NCBI GenBank assembly: GCA_902800585.1
Contig: CADCEW010000001.1
Location: 1,994 to 65,993 of the forward strand
DNA: 64,000 bases
DNA from: an uncultured Prevotellaceae bacterium
GTDB taxonomy: Bacteria; Bacteroidota; Bacteroidia; Bacteroidales; Bacteroidaceae
Direction: 5' to 3'
Shown: piece after piece, positions 18,127 through 55,070 of the stretch
Layout: each line of letters begins with the position of its first letter
Numbering within the stretch: position 1 is the first letter of the stretch
Translations under genes and position numbers: made by a program
Notes under the pieces: model-generated
The model's database searches: none
What the model was told of the DNA's origin: nothing
The model's input: the letters and a program-made list of their open reading frames with translations, nothing else

Positions 18127-18152
18127 TAATCTGTTTCCATCTAATCTTATAG

Positions 18153-18873: not shown

Positions 18874-18895
18874 CATCTTTTTCCTCGTATTAGAT

Positions 18896-18955: not shown

Positions 18956-18985
18956 CAGATACTAACTGAAATGATATACTTTCCA

Positions 18986-21574: not shown

Positions 21575-21589
21575 TATAATACGAAATAT

Positions 21590-24676: not shown

Positions 24677-24696
24677 TATTGATAAATAAAAATAAG

Positions 24697-27696: not shown

Positions 27697-27716
27697 TAAT
27701 CAAAACATAATAACAA

Positions 27717-30164: not shown

Positions 30165-30181
30165 TAGTAAAGAGATAATAG

Positions 30182-33465: not shown

Positions 33466-33473
33466 AACAGCCT

Positions 33474-33803: not shown

Positions 33804-33821
33804 TTTTAAAAATATTTGCGT

Positions 33822-34064
33822 ATGATGAATCTTTTAGACATTATCTGGGAACCCCCTCGTCACCCGAAAATCATTCAGAGTCCTGACACCGTAGATACTG
33901 TTGCCTATGTCGACAGTGTCACAGTACAGAAAATGGACGTCGCTCCCCCTCCCACCATCATAGACACACTTACCAGCGGTGATACGTGGGTGGTCGTCAT
34001 CGTTGCTATTGCCTTGTGTGCCTGTATTTATATGGCATATACCTACCGCCGTTCTCATAAATAA
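33822..34064 (+). CDS. Small protein with a Pro/Thr/Asp-rich N-region, C-terminal TM helix and basic tail
   Basis: 80 aa ending WVVVIVAIALCACIYMAYTYRRSHK. Confidence 0.55.
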   Translation: MMNLLDIIWEPPRHPKIIQSPDTVDTVAYVDSVTVQKMDVAPPPTIIDTLTSGDTWVVVIVAIALCACIYMAYTYRRSHK

Positions 34065-34080
34065 TTTTGACGGATTTTCG

Positions 34081-34156
34081 AAAAACACCTACCTAGTCCC
34101 AATTCCTTTATTTATCTGCATTTCAGCCATGTTTAGGTAGGAGGGTAGGTGTTTTT
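34081..34156. repeat. Short element bounded by a 13-bp perfect inverted repeat (MITE/REP-like)
   Basis: AAAAACACCTACC (34081-34093) and GGTAGGTGTTTTT (34144-34156). Confidence 0.7.
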
Positions 34157-34248
34157 GCGAAATTGATAAATTTTCTCAATTTGAAAAAAACATGTTTTTG
34201 AGGTGAAAGTAGCCTCTTTTCGACCCGTTTGTGGCTTACAAACGACTC

Positions 34249-34287
34249 GTTTGAACGTTACATTCACCCTGTTTGTAACGTTCAAAC
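34249..34287. repeat. 14-bp perfect inverted repeat with 11-nt spacer (terminator or operator)
   Basis: GTTTGAACGTTACA (34249-34262) / TGTAACGTTCAAAC (34274-34287), followed by TTTTT. Confidence 0.75.
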
Positions 34288-34338
34288 TTTTTATGTCATT
34301 TTTCTTTTGAAAAACTTGTGACTTTCGGGAATAATAAT

Positions 34339-34346
34339 TACCTTTG
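34339..34346 (+). promoter_or_regulatory. -7 box (TACCTTTG) for the antitoxin-toxin pair
   Basis: Matches TANNTTTG, 8 nt before ATG 34355. Confidence 0.65.
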
Positions 34347-34354
34347 CATAACAA

Positions 34355-34633
34355 ATGAAATCAACAATGAAAGAAAAAAAGAATCATTTACAAGATATAG
34401 ATGTTGCAGCAGAACCTATAGGTCTTGCTACACCAACCTTTGTCAATGAAAAAACATATAACATTGACGACTGGTCAGGTATGCCCCTTGTGGGTCCTTC
34501 TTCTATAGAAGAAATGAATGCTCGTATTGATGAGGCAGAAATCGAGATGGAAACCAGTGAAGGATATGATTGGGACTGCGTTATGCTGGATGCAACTAAC
34601 ATTGTAAATGAATATGCAAATTCGGTTTACTAA
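34355..34633 (+). CDS. Putative type II antitoxin (acidic, 92 aa)
   Basis: Acidic; lies upstream of and overlaps a RelE/ParE-like frame by 20 nt. Confidence 0.65.
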   Translation: MKSTMKEKKNHLQDIDVAAEPIGLATPTFVNEKTYNIDDWSGMPLVGPSSIEEMNARIDEAEIEMETSEGYDWDCVMLDATNIVNEYANSVY

Positions 34634-34924
34634 GAAAGGGCGTGAAGAATTTCTTAAAATAATCTCTGTTTTTTCTGAATTTGCTGGAACACGTTCTGCC
34701 ACAAGATTATTGAACGAGTCCAACAGAAGGGGGAAATTCTACTTAAATATCCAAAGAGTGGTCATCCTGAGCCATTGCTTTCTGACAGAAAACGAGATTA
34801 TCGTTATGTTGCCATCAACAAGAACTATCGCATGATATATCATGTGACTAAGAATACTATCTGGATAGTGGATGTATGGGACAGGCGTAATGATCCTTCG
34901 AAACTTGTTTCAAGAATTAAATAG
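34614..34924 (+). pseudogene. RelE/ParE-family toxin split by a 1-nt frameshift
   Basis: Frame 0 gives MQIRFTKKGREEFLKIISVFSEFAGTRSA; the -1 frame (open 34679-34924) continues HKIIERVQQKGEILLKYPKSGHPEPLLSDRKRDYRYVAINKNYRMIYHVTKNTIWIVDVWDRRNDPSKLVSRIK; adding one base would give a 103 aa ParE-like protein. Confidence 0.8.
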
Positions 34925-34934
34925 GAATAGTATC

Positions 34935-35303
34935 TTAGGAGTGCCAAGCACTCCTTTTTGTTTCCTCTTTAGGAGGTAGATAGTTATCATACTCACGAAG
35001 GATACGCTCATTCTTTTCGAAACTGCTCTCCTTTCGTTTTTTCTTGAATAAAAAACTGAAAAGACGTTTAAGAAATCCACCAGGCTTGAAACTCATATCA
35101 GAATCCTTCACACCAGCAAGTTGCAATTCCGTCTTGTTAAAGGTAAAAGATGATTGCTTTTTTGTCGGATGACCTGACACGACAACCTCAGGTAAGAGTG
35201 TCGTCTTCTCGTCTATTGTCAGCGAGTCTTGCGTGATTTCCTGTCCCTTGACTCCAATAGCGAAGAACAGCAATAGCGAAATCAGTATCAGTTTATTATT
35301 CAT
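34935..35303 (-). CDS. Small exported hypothetical protein
   Basis: Signal peptide, LPEVVVSG motif, amphipathic basic C-terminal helix; start overlaps the upstream gene stop. Confidence 0.55.
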   Translation of the reverse strand: MNNKLILISLLLFFAIGVKGQEITQDSLTIDEKTTLLPEVVVSGHPTKKQSSFTFNKTELQLAGVKDSDMSFKPGGFLKRLFSFLFKKKRKESSFEKNERILREYDNYLPPKEETKRSAWHS

Positions 35304-40422: not shown

Positions 40423-41154
40423 TTACTGGTATTTCCTGATTCTAACGTCAATGCCGCTGCCGCCTAAGAGCATACTGACCTTACGGATGGGCGTGTCGCT
40501 ATAGTGATAGGGGAACAATACCTTCGGGCGGATAGTCTTTGCTGCCTTCACCAATTGCTCAACAGTCATGGTGTAGGGTTGGTTACAAGGCAGGAAGGCG
40601 ATGTCGATATCCTTGATGTTTTCCATCTCAGGAATGTCCTCTGTATCACCAGCCACATAGATACGCAGGTTCTCGATGGTGAGAATATAACCATTGTCAC
40701 GTCCCTTCGGATGGAACTTCATATGGGCGGGTGTGGTATTATAGGCAGGAACAGCCTCTACAGTGATATTATCGTCCACTTGTGCCTTGTCGCCATTCTT
40801 CATCACATAACCGCTACCCCAGTTCTCATATACATTATGATTAACATAGATGGTTGTGTACTTCCTCTTCAATTCTGTCAGTGCCATCGAATCAAAATGA
40901 TCCTGATGCTCGTGGGTTACAAAGATAAAGTTTGCTTTGGGGAAAGCGGTGAAATCGGTATACGGCTTCACGTTGATGACGGGATCGAAATAGATGACCT
41001 TTCCGTCGTATTCCATCATAATAGTAGCGTGTTTGATACAGGTAATCTTCAGCGTTTTACCTGATTCCGTCTTAAACTCATCCTTCTCAAAGGGTTGTGC
41101 CATACAACCAAGTGCAAGGCAACACATCATGATTATAAAACAAGTTTTTTTCAT
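40423..41154 (-). CDS. Exported MBL-fold metallo-hydrolase
   Basis: Signal peptide; HAT, THEHQDHFD, AYN, GDT and PYHY motifs; -7 box TATCTTTG at 41187-41194 (minus). Confidence 0.9.
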   Translation of the reverse strand: MKKTCFIIMMCCLALGCMAQPFEKDEFKTESGKTLKITCIKHATIMMEYDGKVIYFDPVINVKPYTDFTAFPKANFIFVTHEHQDHFDSMALTELKRKYTTIYVNHNVYENWGSGYVMKNGDKAQVDDNITVEAVPAYNTTPAHMKFHPKGRDNGYILTIENLRIYVAGDTEDIPEMENIKDIDIAFLPCNQPYTMTVEQLVKAAKTIRPKVLFPYHYSDTPIRKVSMLLGGSGIDVRIRKYQ

Positions 41155-41356
41155 ATTTATTGGTCTGTTTATGATATAAATTGGTGCAAAGATAGTATAA
41201 AAATTCGATTTGGCGAAGAAAATTACATATTTATTTATGTTTTGGGGTTATTCTTTCCGCTTGAATCGCTTGATGGCGCTTTGTTAATAAATGCAAACCA
41301 ATGTTATAAAATAATGTAAAATGGAAAAGTTCAAGTGAGATTGAGCAAATAATTAC

Positions 41357-41364
41357 TATCTTTG
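41357..41364 (+). promoter_or_regulatory. -7 box (TATCTTTG) for the FHA/kinase operon
   Basis: Matches TANNTTTG, 42 nt upstream of ATG 41407. Confidence 0.55.
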
Positions 41365-41406
41365 TGATTACAATATAGATTAAAGTATAACTTAAAACGG
41401 ATAAAT

Positions 41407-42108
41407 ATGAAAAAAGATGAAACATTTGTAAAAGGAGGTAACAATCCTTATGCACGTTCAAACGGAGGTCAACGTTCAGGTAATGAGACTTATATCCCTG
41501 GTATGAATGACTATACACCAGGCAGTGCTCCTGCTCCTGCAGCAGCAAATCCAAAGGCAAAGCCCAATACTCCTGTCGTAGGCTTCTTGTATTCCATCTC
41601 CCGTAAGGGCATTGGCGAGTATTGGCCTCTTCATTTGGGAACTAACACGATTGGTAGGTCAGAAGACAATGATATCTGTCTGAAGGAGATGTCTGTGTCA
41701 AGCAAGCATGCTACCTTGAGCATCAAGCAGATGAAGAGTACTCACAAACTGATTGCCAGTATCCGTGATACAGGTTCAAAGACTGGTATGTATCTGAATG
41801 ATGAAGAGTTGGACTATGAGAATCATACTTGTAAGGCCAACGACATCATCACTGTGGGTGCCAATTATAAATTACTGCTTATCTTGATTGATGCAGAAGA
41901 ATATGGACTCTCTGTATCTGAAGAATTCGTAGAGGATAAGGATGCCGCTGAGGCTCCTGCTCCTTATCAGGCACGTGGCGGTTTCGGAGACGACGCGACA
42001 CAGAATAATTTCCGTCCATATAGCTCTGATCACCGTAATGTAGATACTGGTACGGTAGATTTGAGCGGTGCAGGCTTTGATGAGCCAGGTGGAACAGAGA
42101 TGATGTAA
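41407..42108 (+). CDS. Soluble FHA-domain protein with disordered N- and C-terminal tails
   Basis: NTIGRS, SVSSKH, RDTGSKTG and DIITVG FHA motifs; no TM. Confidence 0.9.
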   Translation: MKKDETFVKGGNNPYARSNGGQRSGNETYIPGMNDYTPGSAPAPAAANPKAKPNTPVVGFLYSISRKGIGEYWPLHLGTNTIGRSEDNDICLKEMSVSSKHATLSIKQMKSTHKLIASIRDTGSKTGMYLNDEELDYENHTCKANDIITVGANYKLLLILIDAEEYGLSVSEEFVEDKDAAEAPAPYQARGGFGDDATQNNFRPYSSDHRNVDTGTVDLSGAGFDEPGGTEMM

Positions 42109-42135
42109 AGATTGATATAGAAAGCAACGAAAGAA

Positions 42136-43764
42136 ATGTCTTTAATATATATACAAGGAGAAGAGGAGAAACAGAGACACATACACTATGAGGTGGACCC
42201 GGAATTGCCTTCATTGGGTGAGGGCGGTATGGGACAGGTTCTGAAAGGTGTACAGGTGAATGAAGTTAATGGCGTCCGGAAGGATGTCGCTATCAAGTTC
42301 CTGTTCGAGGATTTACCTGCCCATGCCATTGAACGAGCCCGGAGAGAGGCTTCTATTCAGATACATAATGAGAATCTGGTAGAGATGTTCGGCTTTATAG
42401 AGGTCGTAGAGAATCCTCAAAGTGCACATCCTGTCAAACGCTACCATGTGGTTAGTGAATTGTTACAGGGTGTGATGCTCTTTGACTTGTTGAATGGCAA
42501 GACGACGGACAAGAATGGTAACGAGGTACCTTTCGCTCAAGAATTGTATTCCAAATACCAGAATGACCGCTTCGGCTTTGCTGTCTTCATCGTGAAGAAC
42601 ATCCTGTCGGGACTGATGGCTCTGCATGACAAGGGCTATATTCATCGTGACTTGGATCCGAGCAACATCATGATTACTCCTGACCGAAAAGTTAAAATCA
42701 TCGATTTCGGTATTGCAAAGCAGATGGAGAATCTGAATACACAAGATCAACAACTGACCAGTACGGGACAGTTTGTGGGAAAGGCAGCCTATGCTGCTCC
42801 TGAGCTTGTGTTAGGTGATGTACATAGTCAGGACAAAACCACGGATATCTATGCTGTTGGTATCATGCTCTTCCAGCTCATCACGGGAAGCATGCCCTTC
42901 GAGGGAACGATGGCAGAACTGATTAAGAAACAGTTGAATGAGAAGATTCCTCTGAAACTGATTCCTTATAAGGCTGTGCGGAATATCGTTGCCAAGGCTA
43001 CTGCTAAGAAGCAGAGTGACCGCTATCAGTCTGCAGCGGAGATGCGTGTGGATCTGGAGCATTTGTCGAAGAAAGATGCTGTCCCGTCTGCTACCAGTGC
43101 AGGACAAATAGTAGCAAGCGTGGCTGATGTGAAGAGCAGTAAAGGTAAACTCATCGGTATCTTTGCTGCTGCGGTAGTGGTATTGGCAATTATTCTTGTC
43201 GTCTTACTGAGTGGTGGTTCTGATTCTCCGAAAGATGCTCCGGAAAGTACTCAAAACGTTGAGGCAACTTCTGAGGATTTTGACGTGGCGACCAGTTTCA
43301 CCAAGGCAGAGGATGCCTTGTCGAATGCAGCCACTATCCAAGAAGGAGTCAACTTATTGACAGAGATAGCCACCAAGCACGGAGATGAGAAAGATGCCGC
43401 TGACGCTATTGCCTTACTGTCTGCACTGACACAACCGGAAGATGCGGAAATCAGTGCCAATGAGGTGAAAGAGTTCAGGTCACTGACAGTGAATGCCATT
43501 AAGCGCGATGCCAAGAAGGCTCATCAGTTGGCAGAACAAGCTTATAAGGCTAATCCTGAGAGTTATAAGGCAATATTTGAACTTGCGACTGATTATGTGG
43601 CAGGAGAGAGACGGACGGGTGATGCAAAGGTACAGGATATCCAGAAGTCACTTAAACTGTTTGAGGATGGAATCAATTACGCTCGTCTAAAAGGTGATGC
43701 CGAATATGTGCAACTCTATACTACCCGTATCGAACAGGTACGTAGCCTTGTGCAGGGTGAGTAG
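42136..43764 (+). CDS. Membrane-anchored Hanks-type Ser/Thr kinase with a helical extracytoplasmic domain
   Basis: GEGGMG, VAIK, HRDLDPSN, DFG, APE, DIYAVG; TM LIGIFAAAVVVLAIILVVLL; helical TPR/Sel1-like C-terminus. Confidence 0.9.
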   Translation: MSLIYIQGEEEKQRHIHYEVDPELPSLGEGGMGQVLKGVQVNEVNGVRKDVAIKFLFEDLPAHAIERARREASIQIHNENLVEMFGFIEVVENPQSAHPVKRYHVVSELLQGVMLFDLLNGKTTDKNGNEVPFAQELYSKYQNDRFGFAVFIVKNILSGLMALHDKGYIHRDLDPSNIMITPDRKVKIIDFGIAKQMENLNTQDQQLTSTGQFVGKAAYAAPELVLGDVHSQDKTTDIYAVGIMLFQLITGSMPFEGTMAELIKKQLNEKIPLKLIPYKAVRNIVAKATAKKQSDRYQSAAEMRVDLEHLSKKDAVPSATSAGQIVASVADVKSSKGKLIGIFAAAVVVLAIILVVLLSGGSDSPKDAPESTQNVEATSEDFDVATSFTKAEDALSNAATIQEGVNLLTEIATKHGDEKDAADAIALLSALTQPEDAEISANEVKEFRSLTVNAIKRDAKKAHQLAEQAYKANPESYKAIFELATDYVAGERRTGDAKVQDIQKSLKLFEDGINYARLKGDAEYVQLYTTRIEQVRSLVQGE

Positions 43765-43779
43765 AGAAATTGATTAAAG

Positions 43780-44718
43780 ATGCCGGGGAAAGTAAAGAAG
43801 CAAGGAAACATCATCTATCTGAATGCCTACGGTCGTTGGTATCAGTATGATGAAACGCAACCACCGCTTGGCGCTGGTGCCATGGGAGTCGTGTACGTCG
43901 GAGAGGAATGCCAGACGCACGAACCAGTAGCAGTGAAACGGGTGGTTGACCACTATGCCAATAACCCGGAGATTCGCAGACGTGCCCATCAGGAGGCCGA
44001 TTTAATGTTCAGTCATCCCAATCTGGTAGAGATGCTCGGATGCTGCGAGGTACGTCCTGATACGGGTCCTATCTTTATCATCAGCCGTTTTGTCAAAGGC
44101 GAGAATATTGATAAGTTCATCAATGCTTATGTACGTGCTCTTCCCAATGCAGAGCATCGTATCTGTGAACTGTTTCTGCCAGTGTTAGACGCACTTGCGT
44201 ATATTCATACGAAAGGAATCATCCACATGGATATCAAACCGTCGAACATCATGATGGAACAGGGACGTAATGTACGACTGATGGATTTGGGTATCGCTGA
44301 TGTCACGGACACTATCAACAGTTCTACATCGGGTATGATGGGAACTCCCAAGTATGCAGCACCAGAACAGTTCTCTGATGTGGCAACCAAGCCGCAATTA
44401 ACCTCAGCGACAGATATCTATGAGGCAGGCATCACTTTGTATGAGTTGATTACCAAACAGAATCCCTTCTCGGCAACGACTGTGGCAGAGGCGAAGGAAC
44501 TGCATCACGGTATGATACTGCCAAAAGTGCCGGGAATCTCCGACTCAGTCTATGAGGTAGTACGTAAAGCAACGGCTATCAAGCCTCAGGATCGTTTCCA
44601 GACTGCATCAGCCATGAAACTCGCTTTGAAGGAGGCTCTTCCTCCGCGCAATTATACGAAATTTGACAGAATTCTAAAAGATAAATTATCGATGTTTTCG
44701 GGCATCTTTAAGAAATAA
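43780..44718 (+). CDS. Soluble Hanks-type Ser/Thr kinase (non-RD)
   Basis: GAGAMG, VAVK, HMDIKPSN, DLG, GTPKYAAPE, DIYEAG; no TM. Confidence 0.92.
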   Translation: MPGKVKKQGNIIYLNAYGRWYQYDETQPPLGAGAMGVVYVGEECQTHEPVAVKRVVDHYANNPEIRRRAHQEADLMFSHPNLVEMLGCCEVRPDTGPIFIISRFVKGENIDKFINAYVRALPNAEHRICELFLPVLDALAYIHTKGIIHMDIKPSNIMMEQGRNVRLMDLGIADVTDTINSSTSGMMGTPKYAAPEQFSDVATKPQLTSATDIYEAGITLYELITKQNPFSATTVAEAKELHHGMILPKVPGISDSVYEVVRKATAIKPQDRFQTASAMKLALKEALPPRNYTKFDRILKDKLSMFSGIFKK

Positions 44719-44724
44719 AATAGT

Positions 44725-46125
44725 ATGAATACAATCAAGACAGCAACACCTATAGCAGGCTATTGGGATACCCGGCAAGGAGGACGGGTGGAAAATCAGG
44801 ACTCTTGCGGTTTCTTGGATACGGAGAAAGGACTGATAGCCGTAGTCTGTGACGGTATGGGCGGTGGTCCCAGCGGACAACTCGCTTCTACGATAGCCGT
44901 TCAGAAAATCGTAGAGTATGTAGTTAACGCCCCTATGGATATGCCACGTACAGAGATGGTAGCCCAGGCTATAGAGTATGCGCATCAGTCTATTCTTGCC
45001 AAGACAGCAGAGAATCCTGCCTTGAGGGGTATGGGTTCGACGGCAACAGTGGTGTTGATTAGTGGACAATCTGCAATATTAGGTCATGTCGGTGATAGTC
45101 GTATCTATCAATTCCGTCGTGGCAAGAAGATCTTCCGTACTGCCGACCATTCAATGGTAGGTGAGTTGGTACGTAATGGTACATTGACGGAAGAGCAGGC
45201 TAGACTGTCATCACAGTCAAATATTATCACGAAAGCGTTAGGCAGTAAACTGACAAACCTTGCAGAGGTGACGGAACGTCCCTATGAGAAAGGCGACCGC
45301 TTTATGCTTTGTACGGATGGTATTTGGGGCGCTATGCCAGAAAGCGACTTGATTAAACGAGTGGCTAAAACTCAATCATTGTCGGGAGCTGTTGACTCTA
45401 CTGTAATAAAAGTGGACGAGATAGGGCGTGCCAATGGTAATAAGCATGACAACCTGACGATTGCATTATTAGAAACCAAACAAGATTCTATACTGAAAGA
45501 AAAAATGAGTAAGAAAACATTACGAATTTTGATAGCACTGGCAGCTGTCTGCCTGTTGAGTGTGATCCTCAACATCGTGTTGTTAACCCGGAATACCGTT
45601 AAGTCGCATGACAGTGAGAAAGAAGCGCTGATCACCCAGAATGAGGAACGGGGACAGCGTATCAGGGCATTGGAAGATAGTATCCAGTCCTTATGGGGAA
45701 CTGTTCATGACTCGAAGAACGAGGCTGCTGATGCTAATTTGAAGGCTGCCAAGGAGAAGGAGAATGCCGCGGAGAAGGCAAGGGATGATGCTGAGCAGAA
45801 GGCGAAAGAAGCGAAGGAAGCTGCCGACAAAGCCAAGGATGCTGCCGACCAGGCTAAGGCTGCTGCGGATGCCATCCAGAAGTCGCGTGGTGATGTTATT
45901 GCCCAACTCACGAAGATTAAGGATATGAAGGAGGGTGACCAACGCAAACAGATGCGTACCTCTGTTTCCAATCTGTTGAAGACGCTCTCTGCCCAAGATG
46001 CTACCCACAAGGCCATTTATGATGAGGTGCGTGAGAAACTGGGAAATAAGGTGGCCACCGAGAATTCCGACAAGGCCATTGGCCATTATAAGTTCTTGAT
46101 AGGGAAAATTCAAAACATCAAATAA
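44725..46125 (+). CDS. PP2C/PPM phosphatase with TM helix and C-terminal Ala/Lys/Glu coiled coil
   Basis: GRVENQD, VCDGMGG, HVGDSR, LCTDG and DNLT motifs; TM ILIALAAVCLLSVILNIVLL. Confidence 0.93.
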   Translation: MNTIKTATPIAGYWDTRQGGRVENQDSCGFLDTEKGLIAVVCDGMGGGPSGQLASTIAVQKIVEYVVNAPMDMPRTEMVAQAIEYAHQSILAKTAENPALRGMGSTATVVLISGQSAILGHVGDSRIYQFRRGKKIFRTADHSMVGELVRNGTLTEEQARLSSQSNIITKALGSKLTNLAEVTERPYEKGDRFMLCTDGIWGAMPESDLIKRVAKTQSLSGAVDSTVIKVDEIGRANGNKHDNLTIALLETKQDSILKEKMSKKTLRILIALAAVCLLSVILNIVLLTRNTVKSHDSEKEALITQNEERGQRIRALEDSIQSLWGTVHDSKNEAADANLKAAKEKENAAEKARDDAEQKAKEAKEAADKAKDAADQAKAAADAIQKSRGDVIAQLTKIKDMKEGDQRKQMRTSVSNLLKTLSAQDATHKAIYDEVREKLGNKVATENSDKAIGHYKFLIGKIQNIK

Positions 46126-46127
46126 TA

Positions 46128-46838
46128 TTGCCTATGAAGACCGTATCAATAGGAAGAGGAGAGGGCTGTAATATCATCGTGGATGACGAGATGATGAGTC
46201 GCAGTCATGCGATTATCAGGATTCCTACTTTCGGTAAGATGGAGGTGGTTGATATGAGTAAAAACGGAACCTATGTCAATGGAGTCCGTGTGCGTCCTAA
46301 TGTACCAGTTCCTGTAACCCGTAAGGATGTTGTCAATTTTGCGGAAGTATATCAATTAGACTGGTCGACAATACCAGACCCTCTGAAATATTATAAGATA
46401 GGTGCAATTATCGTGGGTGGACTTATCGTCCTTCTGTTGGTCATCTTACTTTTCAAGAGTTTGTCCAGCGGCACCGATACTTCTCCAGAGCAGCCTGCTG
46501 TAGAACAAGTCCAGAAACCTATACAGACAGACTACGAGCAACCGTCTCAGACCAAACAGGAAGAGGAAACTCAGCCTGAGACACCTATCGAGAGTGATGA
46601 AACTGCCACTCCTTCTAATACTCCAGAGGCTACGTCGGGTACTAGTAATGAAGTAATTGATGTCTATGGGGCTGCCCGTGCCAGTAAGAAGAAACGTGAG
46701 GCAGAGGAACGTGCTCGTCAGCAAAAGGCTAAAGCACAACAAAAAGCGAAGGAACAACAGCAATCCAAGCCTCAGGATAGTCAGCCTTCTAAAGATAAAT
46801 CATCTGATGGTAATAAGAATAAAACAGTCGTAATATAA
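46128..46838 (+). CDS. FHA domain plus TM plus low-complexity tail
   Basis: SIGRG, MSRSH and SKNGTYVNG motifs; TM IGAIIVGGLIVLLLVILLF. Confidence 0.9.
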   Translation: MPMKTVSIGRGEGCNIIVDDEMMSRSHAIIRIPTFGKMEVVDMSKNGTYVNGVRVRPNVPVPVTRKDVVNFAEVYQLDWSTIPDPLKYYKIGAIIVGGLIVLLLVILLFKSLSSGTDTSPEQPAVEQVQKPIQTDYEQPSQTKQEEETQPETPIESDETATPSNTPEATSGTSNEVIDVYGAARASKKKREAEERARQQKAKAQQKAKEQQQSKPQDSQPSKDKSSDGNKNKTVVI

Positions 46839-46855
46839 CTAAAAACATTAAGCAT

Positions 46856-48529
46856 ATGAAGATTATTAAAATTGGTAGTTCGCAATCTTGCGACATCGTA
46901 TTAGACAGTAACTTTGTCAGCAGCCTGCATGCTGAAATGACCATTCTTGACGACGGACAGATAATCCTGGAAGACAAGAACAGTAAGAACGGAACACAAG
47001 TCGGTAATAAGAGAATAGAGCCGGGTAAGGAGGTTTCAATACAACGTGGTGACCGTATTACCTTTGCTGATACTCCTCTGGTATGGGCGAAAGTTCCTGC
47101 TCCAGAGAAATTGGCAGCCTATAAGTCTGTGTATAATATCGGTTCTAATTTCCGTAATGATATTATTTTGAACAGTCAGACAGTTAGCCGTTATCATGCT
47201 TCCCTCAGAGTCGGTAAGGATGGTAAGATGTATATCCATGACAACGGCAGTCGTAATGGCACGATGGTGAATGGTGTAAAGATTGCTGCCAACAAGGATG
47301 TCCGTATCAAGAAGGGTGATAATATTGTCTGTGGTACAGAGGATGTAACGGATCAGGTGACTGCTTTGTTACCCAAGAGCAATACAGGCATGATTGCTGC
47401 TATTGTCGGTGGTGTAGTAGGTCTTCTCGTATTAGCTGGTATCATTTTCGCTCTTTGGCCGAAGTCAGAACCAGAGCCTGTGATTGCTTCTACAAATGAC
47501 TCAACCTATGTAGCTCCATCTACTCCAACAAATGTTTCTCCTGAGAAGTACCGCAACACGGTAGTATATGTGGATGCAATGTATCATTATATTGCTGAGT
47601 TTGAGGATAACCCCATGCCGGATACATGGAACGGAAAGATTGAGGATATCGGTAGAATAGAGGGTGATAATGCAATTAGACCTTATAGTGCAACAGCCTT
47701 CTTCCTCGATAAGAACGGTTATATGGGTACTAACCGTCATGTGGCAGTACCATGGGATTACAGAACTAAGGATGAAGACAACAGAATCCGTGAGTTAATA
47801 GAATATCGCATAGAGTTGATGCGTCGTACCTGTAGGTTTATGAAGACTGGTGATGAGCGCTGGACAGTGAGCGAAAAGAATAGGGATTTCTCTCAACTTA
47901 CTATGCAGAAATTTGCTGAGACAGATTTCTTTAAGGCAATATACAACCACATCCGTAAATCTGCTAATTGGCAGGGTGAGCTGGATAAGATTGTTGATCG
48001 TCTAAATCGTTCCCGTTACACCATCACAGGTGCTATCGATTATATTACGGTAGGTTATGCCGGCAGGAACTATACCCATCGTGATGAGTTCCAGCGTTGC
48101 GATGTTGTAGCAGATTCTAAGGATAAGGAGATTGATGTAGCTTTGTTACAATTGAACGACAAGAAGACTCCCGCAGATGTGGAACTTCTCTTCAGCCCCA
48201 GCAACTTCTATACAGAAAAGTTGGTTCCTTTGAAGGACAAATTGTTTACTATTGGCTATCCAGCAGGTTTGACATGGGGACTTGATACGAAAATCAAGTC
48301 TTTGGAACCCAATATCAAGGAGACCAAGTGTAGTAAGGAGCCAAGCAAGTATGTCTTTGAGTTCCAGGATCAGTCAATAGGCGGTAGCAGTGGCTCGCCA
48401 GTCTTTAACGAGGCAGGTCAGTTGGTTGGTATCCTCAGTTCCGGTACCTCTAATGTGGCAGGTGGCTTCACGATGGCTGTACAGTCTAAGTATCTGAAGA
48501 AAATCTATGATGAAGAAGCAGGACAGTAA
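46856..48529 (+). CDS. Tandem FHA domains, TM, then trypsin-like (S1) serine protease
   Basis: Two FHA repeats (VSSLH/SKNGT; VSRYH/SRNGT); TM; triad TNRH (H295), IDVALL (D427), GSSGSP (S512). Confidence 0.88.
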   Translation: MKIIKIGSSQSCDIVLDSNFVSSLHAEMTILDDGQIILEDKNSKNGTQVGNKRIEPGKEVSIQRGDRITFADTPLVWAKVPAPEKLAAYKSVYNIGSNFRNDIILNSQTVSRYHASLRVGKDGKMYIHDNGSRNGTMVNGVKIAANKDVRIKKGDNIVCGTEDVTDQVTALLPKSNTGMIAAIVGGVVGLLVLAGIIFALWPKSEPEPVIASTNDSTYVAPSTPTNVSPEKYRNTVVYVDAMYHYIAEFEDNPMPDTWNGKIEDIGRIEGDNAIRPYSATAFFLDKNGYMGTNRHVAVPWDYRTKDEDNRIRELIEYRIELMRRTCRFMKTGDERWTVSEKNRDFSQLTMQKFAETDFFKAIYNHIRKSANWQGELDKIVDRLNRSRYTITGAIDYITVGYAGRNYTHRDEFQRCDVVADSKDKEIDVALLQLNDKKTPADVELLFSPSNFYTEKLVPLKDKLFTIGYPAGLTWGLDTKIKSLEPNIKETKCSKEPSKYVFEFQDQSIGGSSGSPVFNEAGQLVGILSSGTSNVAGGFTMAVQSKYLKKIYDEEAGQ

Positions 48530-49866
48530 TGAGGATTAAGAAAAGTCTTATAGTAATACTGATGTGCCTTGCCCTACCTTTAGTGGGGCAGGCACAATCT
48601 GCCCATTGGGCTATTCAGCCCACCTATCAGTCAATGACCCGTTTTGCCCCTCGTCTTTTTAAGGTGAAGACCTATGTCAGTACGGGAATCCTTGACGTGG
48701 ATGATAAATGGGTGGTATCCCCTTCACTGGACTCTATTACTTATGTAACTAATGGCTATGCTCTTGGTTTATTGAGGAGCAAGGATAAATACCGTATTAT
48801 CCATGTCATTAGACAGAACGGTACCCATGAGCCGGTTAAGGAAGAATTGTATGCCGGTGATTTTGCCTATTTCTCAGATGACAGATGCCCTGTTATGAAC
48901 AAGAAAGGCAAGTATGGTTTTATGGATCCTGCAGGAAAATTAGTCGTTTCTTGTTCTTATACAGCAGTTACTCCTTTCCGAAATGGGAGTGCTTTCGTTA
49001 CAAAAGGAAAAGGAGGGTTTTCTGGAAAAAATGCCATTTCCGAGATAGATAATAACGGTAAAGTGATTAAGACTGTTGGCAATAATGACTTCAGGATTCC
49101 CGCGCAGGAGATTGCTATTCCATACAAACCAACTCCAGATCCATCTTATCAGCGGTATGATGAGAATAAATTATATGGATATAAGATAGGAAGTGAAGTG
49201 CTCTTGCCTGCTCAGTTTGAGGAAGCAGAGAATATCTCTGATGATTGCGCTATTGTGATGGTTGATCATTTATATGGAGTGATTAAGGTTAATAGTGCAA
49301 CCATAGACTGTAACGTCAGTGAGTCTGGTGGAAAATTGAAGGCAGATGCCGAAATCCCTTCTGTCTGGGATAATAAGGTGGCAATGATTGTCCGTACGGT
49401 TAATGGTGCATCCCGTAAAGAATTTGAAATGCAAGGAACAGAAACACAACGCACGCTTAACACAAGTGTTTCTAATGAAAGTGGCAAAAAGGTCTATGAC
49501 CTTGCTTGTGACAAACTGATTCTTTGGCGTAGTTCCATAAAAACAGATTCTCCTTCAAAAGGTGGTGGCGGGAAAGCATCATCTAAAGGAGGTGTCTCTG
49601 TCAGTACATCTCCTTCTGTAAAAGCAAATGCGAAAGGTGTATGTTCCGTTTCTATACGTGTTGTCAATAATACAGGTTCTTCGAATACATTTAACATCTC
49701 TCTTAGTACAGGACAGAAGAGTTCTATAAAACTTGCGGCAGGAAAGTCGGGATCCGTCACAGTAAATGTTCCTGTGAAGAAGGATACAAAATGTACGATT
49801 ACCGCCCGCGGAGGTGGCTTCTCGAGTTCTTGTACAACGACATTGAAGCCGTCTTTTGTATTATAA
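48529..49866 (+). CDS. Exported WG-repeat protein with a C-terminal Ig-like beta domain
   Basis: Signal peptide; KYGFMDPAGKLVV, LYGYK...LLPAQFE and LYGVIK repeats. Confidence 0.75.
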   Translation: MRIKKSLIVILMCLALPLVGQAQSAHWAIQPTYQSMTRFAPRLFKVKTYVSTGILDVDDKWVVSPSLDSITYVTNGYALGLLRSKDKYRIIHVIRQNGTHEPVKEELYAGDFAYFSDDRCPVMNKKGKYGFMDPAGKLVVSCSYTAVTPFRNGSAFVTKGKGGFSGKNAISEIDNNGKVIKTVGNNDFRIPAQEIAIPYKPTPDPSYQRYDENKLYGYKIGSEVLLPAQFEEAENISDDCAIVMVDHLYGVIKVNSATIDCNVSESGGKLKADAEIPSVWDNKVAMIVRTVNGASRKEFEMQGTETQRTLNTSVSNESGKKVYDLACDKLILWRSSIKTDSPSKGGGGKASSKGGVSVSTSPSVKANAKGVCSVSIRVVNNTGSSNTFNISLSTGQKSSIKLAAGKSGSVTVNVPVKKDTKCTITARGGGFSSSCTTTLKPSFVL

Positions 49867-49880
49867 TAAAGTATATACTG

Positions 49881-50870
49881 ATGAAAAAGAAAAAGTATCT
49901 CTTCTTGTTATCATTGATGACTGTTGTCATGGGACATGCTCAGGTCTATGACAAACTGATTCTGACGGATGGTAGCATGGTGGAAGGACGCATTGCCGTT
50001 CAGCATCCAGGCAAGGATATTGTTTTCCAGAGTGTTGATCAGGAAATCAGTTATCCCATGGAGGATATACTGGCGATAGAGCGTGTCAAGCGACAGGCTG
50101 ATGACCTTTCCGGTATTGATGACATAATAGAGACAAGGAATGGAAAAGTATTTAAAGGACAGATTGTCAAGCAACTTCTTGGCAAGTCTGTCTATCTGTT
50201 CCAGGACAATGGTGTTACCCAGATAATCAATAATGCTGAAATTGCCTGTCATAGGAAAGAGAAGTTTAATCAGGAACAAAATATCTTTGAACAGGCCCCT
50301 TTCTTGGATGTAGTGGTAACTGATGATAATACTTATCAAGGTATCATAGTCTTACAGAACTATGGTTCAGAAGATGAGGCGAGTTACCTGTGTATTCAGG
50401 ATGAGCAAGGACAACAGCATAAGGTTGACATAGCAGACATCACAGCATTGCGTCGGGAATCGAATAGTCAATATGCTCCTGTTACGGTATTCCGTGCTGG
50501 AGAGGGTGAGGTTTATTTCAACAGGAATCTTACGGCATATACTATATATACAACAGGTAAGGACGGCTCTCTGAGAATCAAGCGTGACATTCTGTTGCAG
50601 TGTCCTGCCATTACGGATACTCGTTTGATTGTTGAGGCTCAGGATAATGAGTCAAATCGTCATGGAATCCTTGTTCGCAGTTCCGTTCAAGGTGAAGGGA
50701 AGAAAGAAGCATTGGTCTTTAGTTATCAAGATATGCTGACCGCACCTGTTTCTCCTGTGCAGACAAAAGTCATTAGTGGTACACTACGTAGGGAGTATGT
50801 AACAGAACCAGGCTTCTATATATATTATGTTCCTCAGACTCAGAGAGCTTATGTCTGTGAAGTAAAATGA
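49881..50870 (+). CDS. Exported hypothetical protein with three short beta-barrel (Sm-like) repeats
   Basis: Signal peptide from ATG 49881; repeats DKLILTDGSMVEGRI, DIIETRNGKVFKGQI and DVVVTDDNTYQGII. Confidence 0.65.
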   Translation: MKKKKYLFLLSLMTVVMGHAQVYDKLILTDGSMVEGRIAVQHPGKDIVFQSVDQEISYPMEDILAIERVKRQADDLSGIDDIIETRNGKVFKGQIVKQLLGKSVYLFQDNGVTQIINNAEIACHRKEKFNQEQNIFEQAPFLDVVVTDDNTYQGIIVLQNYGSEDEASYLCIQDEQGQQHKVDIADITALRRESNSQYAPVTVFRAGEGEVYFNRNLTAYTIYTTGKDGSLRIKRDILLQCPAITDTRLIVEAQDNESNRHGILVRSSVQGEGKKEALVFSYQDMLTAPVSPVQTKVISGTLRREYVTEPGFYIYYVPQTQRAYVCEVK

Positions 50871-50889
50871 TAGGTAGTTGAGTGTTGTG

Positions 50890-51558
50890 ATGGAAATTGA
50901 ACCAATTGCTTTTTTCCATTCTCCCTTTACCTCGAAATTTGGCATACCACGACAGAGTGGTATTGTGAAAGAATTGAGAGGAACGATTGTTTTTACGGAG
51001 AAGTATGCCGAGAGAGAAGCTCTGCGTGGAATAGAATCATACGACTATCTATGGCTGATATGGGGATTCTCAGAGAATGAGGAGGCGGAGAAACATGCTA
51101 CAGTACGTCCTCCATTATTGGGCGGGAATGAAAGAATGGGTTTGTGGGCGACCCGCTCTCCCTTCCGTCCTAATAACCTTGGACTCTCTTCCGTACGTAT
51201 TCTTGCTGTTAATCTTGAGGTACCCAGTATTGAAGTTGCAGGTGCTGACCTGATGGATGGGACACCCATATATGATTTAAAGCCCTATCTCTCATATGCT
51301 GATAGCCATCCTGATGCTCAGGGTGGCTTTACTGATAATCATCAGTGGACACGATTGGAAGTGAGGATACCGAACACTTTCCGTTCCCAGTATTCTATAG
51401 ATGATTGGCGTGTGATAGAGGAAGTCCTTTCCCTTGACCCCCGTCCCCATTATCATGAGGATTCTTGTCGGGAATATGGTATGCCATTTGCTGGCAAAGA
51501 TATTATCTTCAAAGTATCGGATGGAGTGTTGACAGTGGAGAGGATTGTCAAGTTGTGA
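50890..51558 (+). CDS. tsaA: tRNA m6t6A37 methyltransferase TrmO/TsaA
   Basis: KFGIPRQSG, VRPP, ATRSPFRPN and DLMDGTPIYDLKPY motifs. Confidence 0.93.
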   Translation: MEIEPIAFFHSPFTSKFGIPRQSGIVKELRGTIVFTEKYAEREALRGIESYDYLWLIWGFSENEEAEKHATVRPPLLGGNERMGLWATRSPFRPNNLGLSSVRILAVNLEVPSIEVAGADLMDGTPIYDLKPYLSYADSHPDAQGGFTDNHQWTRLEVRIPNTFRSQYSIDDWRVIEEVLSLDPRPHYHEDSCREYGMPFAGKDIIFKVSDGVLTVERIVKL

Positions 51559-51587
51559 TAAATTTTAGACAAAAAGAAAAGAAAAAG

Positions 51588-51619
51588 TTTGGTGTGTTAA
51601 AGAAATATCCATATATTTG
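51588..51619 (+). promoter_or_regulatory. Sigma-A promoter
   Basis: TTTG 51588-51591, 20 nt, TATATTTG 51612-51619. Confidence 0.75.
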
Positions 51620-51648
51620 CAGTCATGATATGAAGATGGGGAAAGAAT

Positions 51649-52434
51649 ATGTGGTTTACAATTGTTCTTATATTAGCGATAGCACTGATAGCCAGTTTGT
51701 GTTATGTGTGTGTGCTCAAAAGTCGTGTTAACAGTTTTCGGAAGGCTGACCGTATCAAGCAGACCTTCATGACGAATGTTAATCATGAGATTCGTGTACC
51801 GTTGGAGGCTCTTACCGGGCTTGCCAACATCATTTCAAATGAGAAAGTCTATCTTTCGAAAAATGAGAAACAGAATATCTCAGACCAGATAAACTATAAT
51901 GCCAATCTGATGGAAACACTTCTTGATGAAGTGATGATGTTTGCTGGGAATGAGAAAGAGGGGCATCAGTTGCATGACGAGTCTTTTAGCCCCAATGTTT
52001 TATGTCTGAGATGCTTGGAAGCCAACATGTATAGTCTTTATCGTCGTGAGGCTGTCAAATTGAGTTTTAAGCGTGAATTGAGTGATGAGTTCTTTATGAA
52101 GAGTGACCACCATTTGGTGGAATTGATACTGAATAAACTGATACTGAATGCTTGTCGCTTTACGGAACATGGTGAGGTGTTGGTTGGATGTAATACTAGA
52201 GAATATGCCGATCGCATAACTTTTTTTGTAGAAGATACAGGGGGCGGTATCCCTGAGAATCGTCTTAACAATTTATTCACATGGTTTGATAATCCGGAAG
52301 ATATGAATGATGAGGTGGAACTCGACTTGGCTGTCTGTCAGCGGGTGGCTCAGAAACTGGGTGGTATGCTTGTAAGGGATGAGCACTATCAGCGTCAGGG
52401 TACTCGTATGCTTCTGGTGCTTCCACTTAAATAA
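51649..52434 (+). CDS. Orphan minimal histidine kinase (single TM, HisKA, HATPase_c)
   Basis: NHEIRVPL H-box, NACRFT N-box, DTGGGI G1; G2 degenerate (ELDL). Confidence 0.82.
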   Translation: MWFTIVLILAIALIASLCYVCVLKSRVNSFRKADRIKQTFMTNVNHEIRVPLEALTGLANIISNEKVYLSKNEKQNISDQINYNANLMETLLDEVMMFAGNEKEGHQLHDESFSPNVLCLRCLEANMYSLYRREAVKLSFKRELSDEFFMKSDHHLVELILNKLILNACRFTEHGEVLVGCNTREYADRITFFVEDTGGGIPENRLNNLFTWFDNPEDMNDEVELDLAVCQRVAQKLGGMLVRDEHYQRQGTRMLLVLPLK

Positions 52435-53800: not shown

Positions 53801-54406
53801 CTATTTGTATTGAATCTTGACCTGTTTGAATCCCATACTCTGAAGTACCTGACGTACTTGTGCATCACCATTTTGTTTTGCGATTTGCAGGTTCTGAGAG
53901 GTCATTCCGCGTTGTAGCATCTTGTGATAGGCCCTTTGAAGCATCGACTCACGGTCTTTGGGACTCCATGTGCCACTTTCATAGAAACTTCTGGTTCGTG
54001 CCTCGTCAATGAAATCACGGTCAAGAAGATCTATCTGGGGTAGGGTGATATCTATGGTATCTCCTCTTGCCACAATCCATCCAGGTTCAACCTGTTTGAG
54101 ATTAACGCCCAGTCGTAATGTTCCATAGTAAATCCTTGCTAATCGGTCATTGGAGAAGATTCCGAGACGGATAGTGTCTACCAATTCCTCATCACTGATG
54201 GATAAGAACTCCCATTCTCCGATTTCTTTAATGCTTTTTATTTGTTCAGGTGTGATGTCTATCTGCTGGTCTGCACCGAATTCAATATGACCGTCTCTAA
54301 TGTCCCAGTATATCCATCCTACGATACAAAGTAATAGTATGATGCCTATGGCAAGCACCAGCAGACCCATGGGAAAGGATAATATGTTCTTCTTATTTCT
54401 TGCCAT
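53801..54406 (-). CDS. DUF4230-domain protein
   Basis: N-terminal TM; YYGTLRLGV and ITLPQ motifs; start taken at MARNKK. Confidence 0.75.
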   Translation of the reverse strand: MARNKKNILSFPMGLLVLAIGIILLLCIVGWIYWDIRDGHIEFGADQQIDITPEQIKSIKEIGEWEFLSISDEELVDTIRLGIFSNDRLARIYYGTLRLGVNLKQVEPGWIVARGDTIDITLPQIDLLDRDFIDEARTRSFYESGTWSPKDRESMLQRAYHKMLQRGMTSQNLQIAKQNGDAQVRQVLQSMGFKQVKIQYK

Positions 54407-55070
54407 GTTCAATGTCCATATTAACAAGTGATTTGATGTCTTGTATTCCGTACTCTTTACGGAACTGAATGACGATATCCTGCTCCTGATATCCCATCTG
54501 AGTAATCAGAGGAACTAAGACACGGGCAGCATTTTCCTGTGCAGTAGATATGATTCCTAATTGAGGAATACTTGCAATAATAGCAGCACGTCCCTGTTGC
54601 TCATAGTCTGCCATTTCTGCATCTGTGAAATGCGAACGGACTAATCCTACATATTCCTTAATTCCTTTTTGATCTATCTTTGAACTTGTCAGTGTGACTT
54701 GAGGGTCAGGCAGGGTAATGATGATTTTCTGACCATCGCGTTCAACATTCTTTTCTGAGAAGTCACTCATATCAATAAAGGCTTTAAGAGTAGCATCCAT
54801 GGGGATGGCGATTTTCCGGTCACCCAACGGCATCTTGATATTGAAATCCTGTGCAAGAATGGTTCCTTTCAAACGTATGACGTCATCATGAGTGACAATC
54901 TTATGGATTTTGACCTCTGTGGTATAAATCCGGGAACATTTCTGTACCTGCATGACGAATGAGTGGAAGGCATCGTCCGAGGATGCAGTATCTCCCTTCG
55001 TCTCATGATGTTGGTTGCATGCACAACAGCAACAGAGAATAAAGGTTATAATAGATATATATCTTGCCAT
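54393..55070 (-). CDS. DUF4230-domain protein (possible lipoprotein)
   Basis: Cys-rich signal; ATLKAFIDMS, ITLPDP and AQENAARVLVPL motifs. Confidence 0.78.
   Translation of the reverse strand: MARYISIITFILCCCCACNQHHETKGDTASSDDAFHSFVMQVQKCSRIYTTEVKIHKIVTHDDVIRLKGTILAQDFNIKMPLGDRKIAIPMDATLKAFIDMSDFSEKNVERDGQKIIITLPDPQVTLTSSKIDQKGIKEYVGLVRSHFTDAEMADYEQQGRAAIIASIPQLGIISTAQENAARVLVPLITQMGYQEQDIVIQFRKEYGIQDIKSLVNMDIEHGKK

Follow-up and report, generated by a model that had tools for sequence, protein, structure and literature searches.

We propose that an eight-gene operon (positions 41407-50870, + strand) in DNA from an uncultured Prevotellaceae bacterium encodes a resident, vertically inherited phosphothreonine module that spans the inner membrane, takes an envelope-stress cue as its input and has a periplasmic protease of the HtrA fold as its output, a reading to which we give somewhat more credence than doubt. 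The operon lies in a stretch of 64,000 nucleotides (contig CADCEW010000001.1 of GenBank assembly GCA_902800585.1, positions 1,994 to 65,993), the whole of which is referred to herein as the window. Pfam and NCBIfam scans of its eight co-oriented open reading frames (ORFs), designated g1 to g8, gave the domain content that had been listed in a preliminary description of this DNA, namely two Hanks-type Ser/Thr kinases, one PP2C phosphatase, four FHA domains, a protein in which two FHA domains are joined by a transmembrane (TM) segment to a serine protease, a WG-repeat protein and an exported protein. The scans confirm the earlier claim that the operon contains writers, an eraser and readers of phosphothreonine in the form of two Hanks kinases, one PP2C and four FHA domains. 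TM helices and signal peptides were called from hydropathy and sequence inspection only, and by hydropathy g2, g4, g5 and g6 have exactly one strong TM segment apiece, in agreement with the claim that four of the proteins cross the inner membrane.

The FHA-FHA-protease protein

The signature protein of the system is g6 (46856..48529, + strand), which has two FHA domains (E 1e-35), a TM helix at residues 180-198 and a serine protease domain (Trypsin_2, E 3e-12), with the FHA pair predicted to be cytoplasmic and the protease predicted to be periplasmic. The catalytic triad of H295, D427 and S512 is invariant in 30 g6 orthologues with identities down to 43%, and the same is true of C415 and C492, so that a periplasmic disulfide would fit. 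Both FHA domains retain the Ser-x-x-His and Asn-Gly motifs, and the protein also matches the Yop-YscD_cpl Pfam model (71 bits, cutoff 33). An AlphaFold2 model of g6 based on a 30-sequence alignment (mean pLDDT 84.6) consists of two FHA sandwiches and the TM helix followed, after a disordered linker, by a domain of the trypsin fold. In Foldseek searches the nearest structures to the protease are the protease domains of HtrA1, HtrA3, DegS and Deg (target-normalised TM-score of 0.65-0.70; E values of 8e-9 for HtrA1 and 5e-8 for DegS), and the nearest solved relatives by sequence are exfoliative toxin A, SplA and the V8 protease. A helical insert of ~85 residues between the catalytic His and Asp is confidently modelled and is the fastest-evolving part of the domain, as it is only 28% identical between the window and a related locus (L007) compared with ~60% for the protease core. 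No PDZ domain was matched in g6 by Pfam, and the protein ends 45 residues past the catalytic Ser.

Kinases, phosphatase and other FHA proteins

The two kinases differ in type and in their relation to the membrane. The first of them, g2 (42136..43764, + strand; Pkinase E 2e-36), is an RD-type Hanks Ser/Thr kinase and is bitopic, as a TM helix (residues 339-357) is followed by a helical tail of 185 residues that is predicted to be periplasmic. The VAIK, HRD, DFG and APE motifs of g2 are retained throughout its orthologues. In a relaxed Pfam scan the tail gave TPR/Sel1 matches that were sub-threshold only and no vWA match. The kinase domain is 81% identical between L007 and the window and the periplasmic domain only 43%, and we consider g2 to be a candidate sensor. 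The second kinase, g3 (43780..44718, + strand; 312 residues; Pkinase E 2e-40), is of the non-RD type, with HMD and DLG motifs, and retains the catalytic Lys, Asp and Asn; hence both Hanks kinases are apparently active. In the clade of the window g3 appears to be soluble or peripheral, while in the alignment distant orthologues are tail-anchored by a C-terminal TM helix, and the tail anchor is ancestral. The opposing enzyme is g4 (44725..46125, + strand; PP2C_2 E 6e-18), a membrane-anchored PP2C phosphatase with a predicted cytoplasmic catalytic domain, a TM helix at residues 268-286 and a periplasmic coiled-coil tail that is rich in Ala, Lys and Glu. Its metal-binding motifs (DGMGG, DGIWG and HDN) are invariant over the orthologues, and it scores 182 bits against the Stp1/IreP model NF033484, below the cutoff of 230.

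The remaining two FHA domains are in g1 and g5. The soluble g1 (41407..42108, + strand; 233 residues; PF00498 E 6e-13) has no TM segment, has disordered tails at both its N- and C-terminus, and retains the Gly-Arg and Ser-x-x-His motifs in its FHA domain. Three Thr motifs recur in 18 of 18 g1 orthologues. The first, near residue 28, is T-x-[IV]-P-G-M, the second is GTV-x-[LMF], and the third, T-x-x-[ML]-COOH, ends the protein; these are candidate sites of phosphorylation or of FHA docking. FHA domains commonly prefer pT-x-x-hydrophobic, and the second and third of the motifs are candidates because both fit this preference. The bitopic g5 (46134..46838, + strand; FHA E 3e-16) has a fully canonical FHA domain (GR, SRxH and NGT), followed by a TM helix at residues 91-109 and a TolA-like low-complexity tail of Lys, Glu and Gln that is predicted to be periplasmic. 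The start of g5 has been corrected to the ATG at 46134, rather than the TTG at 46128, and it is the most likely start because all 19 orthologues begin with MK(T/V/R/I). Where g8 is present, g5 ends in a conserved N-K-x-V-V-I motif (46800-46838 in the window), and in four loci that have lost g8 (L003-L006) it ends in ...PEMI or ...AAKK instead. This hints at a contact between the g5 tail and g8, although these four loci form one subclade, and the change in the motif and the loss of g8 must be counted as one event.

The exported proteins g7 and g8

The operon ends with two genes for exported proteins. The start of g7 (48529..49866, + strand) overlaps the stop codon of g6 (TAATG), which suggests translational coupling, and the protein has a hydrophobic N-terminus resembling a signal peptide, a linker rich in Ser and Gly and a C-terminal domain that is rich in beta structure. 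Its WG repeats match PF14903 (WG_beta_rep) with an E value of 4e-16 and 59 bits in three stretches, against a cutoff of 25.6; a sequence search of the PDB found no match to g7. The last gene, g8 (49881..50870, + strand), encodes a member of an undescribed family with a signal-peptide-like start (MKKKKYLFLL...). The most likely start codon is the ATG at 49881 and not the ORF start at 49791, as the latter would overlap g7. There was no match to g8 in Pfam, NCBIfam or the PDB, and at relaxed settings Pfam yielded only sub-threshold matches for g7, g8 and the periplasmic tails. The preliminary description regarded both g7 and g8 as exported repeat proteins, and this stands for g7 with its WG repeats. 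As a repeat protein g8 is weakly supported, since its three N-terminal units of ~55-65 residues, which precede a distinct C-terminal domain, align at z = 3.3-3.6 relative to shuffled sequences. An AlphaFold2 model of g8 from the single sequence has a mean pLDDT of 33 and is unusable for a fold search. Homologues of g8 are present in Phocaeicola and as the last gene of the sister loci described below (hhalign probability 97%, E 9e-11).

Compared with the closest relatives, g7 is 57-62% and g8 is 52-59% identical, versus 75-92% for g1-g4 and g6, and in general the exported and periplasmic parts of the system outpace the cytoplasmic domains, as well as most of the flanking genes, in their divergence. 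Slow evolution on the cytoplasmic side and fast evolution on the periplasmic side fits with sensing or interaction on the envelope side. The faster divergence of the exported and periplasmic parts is to be expected for envelope-exposed proteins and alone is no sign of conflict.

Conservation and distribution

The DNA is that of a rumen Prevotella, and the loci closest to that of the window are in metagenome-assembled genomes (MAGs) and isolates of Prevotella from cattle, yak, deer and buffalo, and the operon region is also contained in bovine and sheep gut metagenomes. The neighbors of g6 are retained in all 15 of the genome loci in which g6 was found. Nine Prevotella loci with a g6 identity of 75-82% have g1 to g7 in the same order, most of them with the same trmO, histidine kinase and agcS flank, while all eight genes are present with other flanks in three loci at 57% g6 identity and, together with inserted extra genes, in a Bacteroidales MAG at 37%. 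The same eight genes are found in the same order in Phocaeicola barnesiae, where they lie between fimbrial genes and a nucleoside symporter gene, and all eight are also present in P. massiliensis. Named members of the cluster include P. salanitronis DSM 18170, a Parabacteroides sp. and Muribaculaceae, and the gene block is thus distributed over Prevotella, Phocaeicola, Parabacteroides and Muribaculaceae. Partners were counted over 36 loci, including those from metagenomes, in which a full-length relative of g6 (27-100% identity) is adequately flanked. A kinase is present in all 36, a PP2C in 35, an FHA-TM protein in 32, g1 in 31, a g8 family member in 27 and a WG-repeat protein in 25. Since the same gene set recurs in dozens of divergent loci, the arrangement is not due to chance, and the co-conservation of the genes across gut Bacteroidales, which the neighborhood search was proposed to check, is borne out by these counts. 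The partner genes are missing from soil relatives of the FHA-FHA-protease protein.

The protease domain by itself is found in 44 clusters (at the 50% identity level) at E <= 1e-30 and in 261 at E <= 1e-10, out of 1.84 billion representatives, and nearly all of these proteins have 500-560 residues and carry the domain C-terminally. The FHA-FHA-trypsin architecture was already known, as a protease survey of 2008 lists 'FHA-FHA-Tryp' in B. thetaiotaomicron (NP_811686.1), and a kinase survey of 2005 lists two Ser/Thr kinases in the same organism. The B. thetaiotaomicron copy, whose locus tag would be BT_2774 as estimated from accession numbering, was not among the best 120 matches of the protein searches. 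No functional study that combines Bacteroides, kinase, FHA and PP2C was found in the literature, where BT2766-BT2777 turned up solely as crystallography codes with no relation to these genes. The operon as a whole is therefore uncharacterised and is widespread across the Bacteroidales, and the preliminary statement that no characterised Bacteroidota system of this architecture is known holds, with the 2008 catalogue entry covering the FHA-FHA-trypsin architecture alone.

A sister architecture resembling the T6SS threonine phosphorylation pathway

While the window operon represents what we term type A, a second arrangement, type B, is present in L010 (2215-13641), L012 (7-13634) and the Muribaculaceae locus L020 (1-12803). 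These clusters begin with the genes for an outer-membrane beta-barrel protein, two to three small unknown proteins, a TssR-like protein, a LolD/FtsE-like ATPase of an ATP-binding cassette (ABC) transporter and an FtsX permease, followed by those for a g3-type kinase, which is the sole kinase, a TM-anchored PP2C, an FHA-TM protein, an FHA-FHA-TM-protease and a g8 homologue. The WG-repeat protein g7 is missing from them. Comparison of the two types therefore defines an invariant core of the family, consisting of a kinase, the PP2C-TM, FHA-TM and FHA-FHA-TM-protease proteins and g8. The type B TssR-like protein has 800 residues and all three of the TssR Pfam domains, vWA among them, above cutoff, and in L023 and L031 genes for TssR-like and small proteins also adjoin type A cores. 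TssR is a lipoprotein belonging to the membrane complex of the Bacteroidota type VI secretion system (T6SS), T6SS-iii, and type B hence places a paralogue of a T6SS-iii membrane-complex protein outside any T6SS locus. The L010 contig (CAYZFG010000026.1) is labelled 'uncultured Staphylococcus sp.', which is probably wrong as its cluster is 80% identical to that of L012, a MAG labelled 'uncultured Bacteroidales'.

Taken together, the outer-membrane protein, vWA protein, Lol-like ABC pair, Hanks kinase, PP2C and FHA protein of type B reproduce the set of components found in the Pseudomonas TagQRST-PpkA-PppA-Fha1 pathway, which senses envelope damage caused by T6SS or type IV secretion system attack, by polymyxin or by depletion of BamA, LptD or TolB. 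There were no T6SS structural genes among the genes scanned of L016-L018 and L020 and, in part, of L007 and L010-L012.

Operon structure and transcription

The eight genes are tightly packed, as previously described, with intergenic gaps from g1 to g8 of 27, 15, 6, 8, 17, -1 and 14 nucleotides; the largest gap is thus 27 nucleotides and not the 28 that had been given as the upper limit. The operon is located between an MBL-fold (metallo-beta-lactamase-fold) hydrolase gene upstream (40423-41154, - strand) and trmO/tsaA downstream (50890..51558, + strand), which encodes a tRNA methyltransferase O with TrmO_N and TrmO_C domains; the co-orientation of the genes and these two boundaries are also as first reported. 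The likely start of trmO/tsaA is the ATG at 50890 and not the TTG at 50878, which leaves a gap of 7-19 nucleotides after g8. The 252-nucleotide divergent promoter region (41155..41406, + strand), common to the operon and the MBL hydrolase gene, has a GC content of 26.6%, compared with 44.4% for the operon. As a scan for sigma-70 promoters and terminators is uninformative for Bacteroidetes, we used the TAnnTTTG motif instead, and a Bacteroidetes-type -7 box (TAtcTTTG) is located within the region at 41357-41364; the start of transcription is predicted to lie near 41371. In three RNA runs the depth falls to ~0-3 over the promoter region (41122-41410) and picks up from 41411. These features agree with the single AT-rich divergent promoter region that was first described.

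Evidence for co-transcription comes from assembled metatranscriptome contigs, among which there can be DNA. In three rumen metatranscriptome assemblies such contigs bridge g1-g2, g2-g3, g4-g5, g5-g6-g7 and g8-trmO, and this supports the operon as one co-transcribed unit, as was originally claimed. With g8 linked to trmO/tsaA by these contigs, and by a gap of only 7-19 nucleotides, the transcription unit in the lineage of the window probably comprises nine genes. However, trmO/tsaA adjoins the operon in close relatives only and not in L007-L009, L011 or Phocaeicola, and it is probably a co-transcribed passenger in the Prevotella clade of the window that is outside the conserved module. A contig of 18.5 kb from another RNA run (X26) covers both strands at a depth of 91; this is probably DNA carry-over and it was disregarded.

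Genomic setting

Several lines of evidence point to the operon being a resident locus and not a mobile phage-defense island, as it has housekeeping neighbors, a GC content like that of the window (44.4 vs. 44.5%), flanks that are syntenic among close relatives, and no relatives in phage records or IMG/VR. The neighbors in the window encode GH2 and GH31 glycosidases, transporters, porin-like outer-membrane proteins, the MBL hydrolase, TrmO, a histidine kinase, AgcS, DUF4230 proteins and a P-type ATPase. Window genes were scanned for families at 27.7-33.5, 35.3-41.2 and 51.6-58.4 kb plus the operon, and no T6SS, rodA/pbpA or prophage genes were among them, in keeping with the absence of these partners noted previously. 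A tblastn search with g6 found no relatives among 50,697 phage records, and a profile scan of 2.9 million IMG/VR contigs found none either. The only full-length tblastn match to g6 among 72,556 plasmid records is a non-mobilizable record of 140 kb that is labelled as a P. massiliensis plasmid. The PADLOC-DB 2.0 matches are at the level of domains only, with no multi-gene system, and comprise the kinase models PD-T4-6, mad6, MkoA and Stk2, the PP2C model PDC-M21C (60 bits) and weak matches to the protease domain; g1 and g7 have no match and those of g5 and g8 are marginal (E 0.003-0.005).

The upstream junction is less stable than the downstream one, given that in L004 (1675-5294) an insertion of ~3.6 kb separates the MBL hydrolase gene from g1 and that several other relatives have no MBL gene within 5 kb upstream. 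Two DNA runs (X1 and X12) contain 92-99% of the operon's words according to the index, yet have near-zero contig depth at 41207-52000, with the upstream flank covered; this may reflect a limit of the tool or strain divergence. Contigs cannot show absence, and orthologues of <90% likeness are missed. The histidine kinase core downstream of trmO (51649-52434; 261 residues) shows no obvious sensor or TM region. A TAtaTTTG box of its own lies in the 90-nucleotide gap after trmO and, at 57-67% identity among close relatives, this kinase core diverges as fast as g7 and g8. Further away, a long run of + strand genes at 14719-33465 (strongly positive GC skew, 0.13-0.24 over 15-27 kb) holds the GH2/GH31 glycosidases and a transporter of the major facilitator superfamily, and is probably a polysaccharide utilisation locus. 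It is followed by ~1.8 kb (33470-35300) in which the GC content is ~37% and all ORFs are short, two of these encoding hydrophobic segments. On the other side of the operon, a tandem pair of minus-strand DUF4230 genes (53801-55070) is followed by a divergent P-type cation ATPase gene and a DUF4738 gene. The window gave no match to a tRNA or to any Rfam family.

Proposed mechanism and alternatives

A mechanism that would account for these features is one in which g2 and g3 write the phosphothreonine mark, g4 erases it and the three FHA proteins read it. The kinases may phosphorylate conserved Thr motifs, for example those in the g1 tails, and probably also each other, and the FHA domains of the bitopic g5 and g6 would dock on these marks. 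The sites predicted to carry phosphothreonine are T28 of g1, its GTVDL and TEMM motifs towards the C-terminus, and the activation loops of the kinases. Docking would then recruit or oligomerise g6 and activate cleavage in the periplasm. Proteases of the HtrA type are typically switched by oligomerisation or allostery, which is why clustering of g6 would be expected to activate its protease. The PP2C g4 would reset the system, and the cue, substrate, adaptor or regulator of the protease might be g7, g8 or the long periplasmic tails of g2, g4 and g5. By analogy with TagQRST-PpkA-PppA-Fha1 the cue is most likely to be envelope damage or stress, with phage infection less likely, and the output would be regulated periplasmic proteolysis in place of T6SS assembly. 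The preliminary description had pictured a self-contained circuit for envelope surveillance or conflict. The surveillance logic now has indirect support from the parallel between the sister architecture and TagQRST-PpkA-PppA-Fha1; the conflict element, as discussed below, does not.

Several observations weigh against this mechanism. In this organism both FHA domains of g6 are without the Arg that follows the conserved Gly, and the Arg of FHA1 is present in only about one third of the orthologues, so that the g6 FHA domains could be phospho-independent scaffolds like those of YscD or EssC. In the clade of the window the Asn-Gly motif in the FHA domain of g1 has its Asn replaced by a Thr. Judging from the motifs, recognition of phosphothreonine is thus well founded in g5; in g1 it is plausible and in g6 uncertain. 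In addition, g8 is dispensable in one subclade (L003-L006), the analogy with TagQRST rests on the relatives, since the window operon is without the ABC pair and the vWA protein, and the protease could act upstream of the kinases rather than downstream.

The occurrence in related loci of a TssR-family gene, from the T6SS-iii membrane complex, and of an ABC/FtsX pair like TagT/TagS raises the question of whether the operon regulates a separate envelope machine that is encoded elsewhere, such as T6SS-iii, with the protease only processing a component of that machine; the operon would then be a genuine counterpart, in function, of the T6SS threonine phosphorylation pathway. Weak matches of the FHA domains to the TagH/VI_FHA and YscD models could be taken in the same direction. 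We consider this unlikely, as no T6SS structural gene is among the scanned genes of the window or of the 20-kb loci, the VI_FHA score is 51 bits relative to a cutoff of 120, the window operon itself has neither the TssR-like nor the ABC genes, and the T6SS-iii paper cited for TssR does not describe a dependence on Fha or PpkA. An anti-phage or conflict system, in which a kinase/phosphatase toxin-antidote or abortive-infection module would have the protease as its effector, is quite unlikely. Modules of two kinases and a PP2C can act in defense, as in the kinase-kinase-phosphatase (KKP) system, and the kinases score well on PADLOC PD-T4-6 and mad6 and the PP2C on PDC-M21C, but PADLOC recognized only such generic domains and no multi-gene system. 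Likewise, the exported proteins and periplasmic domains evolve fast and close orthologues are found in only some Phocaeicola species, but the whole set shows deep vertical conservation with stable synteny, housekeeping neighbors and genome-like GC, is without relatives in phage records or IMG/VR, and is transcribed in several rumen metatranscriptomes, and its effector is on the periplasmic side, remote from phage replication. The conflict or phage-defense interpretation offered previously is consequently not supported.

Control of growth, division or peptidoglycan, as exerted by the actinobacterial PknA/PknB-PstP-FhaA-FhaB (FipA) system, would be suggested by the same parts list of two kinases, a membrane PP2C, and soluble and membrane FHA proteins, and by the presence of only two Ser/Thr kinases in B. 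thetaiotaomicron according to the 2005 survey. It is nevertheless very unlikely, because there is no PASTA domain and no linkage to rodA, pbpA or ftsW, all equivalog scores are far below their cutoffs, the conserved partners are a protease and exported proteins, and the plasticity of the architecture, with its types A and B and loss of g8, is unusual for a core division module. The explanation to which we attach the least probability is that of maturation or quality control of g7 and g8, in which the protease would process them constitutively and the phospho-module would only tune the amount. The g6-g7 overlap is suggestive of stoichiometric co-production, g8-family genes follow the protease in both architectures and the C-terminal motif of g5 is altered where g8 is lost; however, the signalling core is kept where g7 is missing (type B) and where g8 is lost (L003-L006), and mere maturation would leave the two kinases, the phosphatase and the four FHA domains unexplained.

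We therefore return to the inner-membrane phosphothreonine module with a periplasmic protease output. In a bolder form, this would be a T6SS-independent descendant or analogue of the threonine phosphorylation pathway, with inside-out control of a periplasmic protease through FHA-TM proteins, that serves as the main and perhaps the only Hanks-kinase circuit of these bacteria; such a proposal is possible but must be regarded as doubtful. Bacteroidales dominate gut and rumen communities, and their eukaryote-like Ser/Thr kinase signalling is essentially unstudied, while the operon is a compact, conserved and testable system with writer, eraser, readers and an enzymatic output across the membrane. 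If the reading is correct, it would represent a new way of coupling phosphothreonine signalling with periplasmic proteolysis, it would mean that the envelope-damage sensing logic of the Pseudomonas T6SS is used more widely and independently of T6SS, and it would bear on the resistance of commensals to bile, antimicrobial peptides and attack by neighbors. Even were the role to be one of ordinary housekeeping, three function-less families would be annotated, the FHA-FHA-TM-protease, the g8 family and the linked WG-repeat protein.

Comparison with known systems

The closest functional likeness of the operon is to the T6SS threonine phosphorylation pathway and the closest parts list is that of the actinobacterial PknB/PstP/FhaA/FhaB cluster, and it is without the defining features of both. 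In common with TagQRST-PpkA-PppA-Fha1 it has a Hanks kinase that sits in the membrane and carries a periplasmic domain, a PP2C that opposes it, one or more FHA readers and accessory envelope proteins. The LolD/FtsX-type ABC pair, the vWA-domain protein and the outer-membrane protein are shared by the sister loci only; a TagS/TagT-like ABC pair and TagQ and TagR partners are absent from the window operon, with analogues only in L010, L012 and L020. Of the arrangement of PpkA, the kinase, its TM helix and the PP2C are there, and the periplasmic domain of g2 is helical and TPR-like with no vWA match. The operon further differs in having two kinases, a membrane anchor on the PP2C and an FHA reader that a TM helix joins to a periplasmic protease, and no T6SS genes are linked. 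Against TIGR03354 (Fha1/TagH, VI_FHA) g6 scores 51 bits relative to the cutoff of 120.25, with no match for g1 or g5. The actinobacterial cluster (fhaA-fhaB-pstP-rodA-pbpA-pknA-pknB) likewise has two Hanks kinases, a TM-anchored PP2C, and soluble and membrane FHA proteins in one operon. In contrast, the operon described here is without PASTA domains, RodA and PbpA, its FHA-TM proteins have the reversed orientation with the FHA domain N-terminal, and a protease and exported proteins are added. The equivalog models agree, with 158 bits for g2 and 175 bits for g3 against the PASTA kinase model NF033483 (cutoff 450), no PASTA Pfam match, and 44 bits for g5 and 72 bits for g6 against the FhaB/FipA model NF049868 (cutoff 125).

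The KKP system (PfkA/PfkB/PfpC) also has two Hanks kinases adjoining one PP2C, with an FHA domain involved, and is defined by the order PP2C-kinase-kinase, a fusion of a kinase with a cold-shock domain, a kinase-FHA fusion and location in a prophage (PMC11341870). The operon has none of these defining features, as its order is kinase-kinase-PP2C, neither kinase has a cold-shock or FHA domain and it is not in a prophage; moreover its proteins are membrane-anchored with a periplasmic output. With DegS/HtrA proteases g6 has in common the trypsin fold, an intact Ser-His-Asp triad and, as in DegS, an N-terminal inner-membrane anchor. It differs in having two FHA domains across the membrane instead of a PDZ domain and an insert of ~85 residues between the His and Asp, and by sequence it is nearer to the S1B proteases (V8, Spl and exfoliative toxin). 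Finally, the FHA scaffolds YscD/PrgH, EssC, TagH and GltG/GltJ are also bitopic with an N-terminal cytoplasmic FHA domain and a periplasmic extension. The operon differs from these in that no secretion or motility genes are linked to it and that the periplasmic part of g6 is an enzyme, and, with a kinase and a phosphatase encoded beside its FHA proteins, phospho-dependence is likely.

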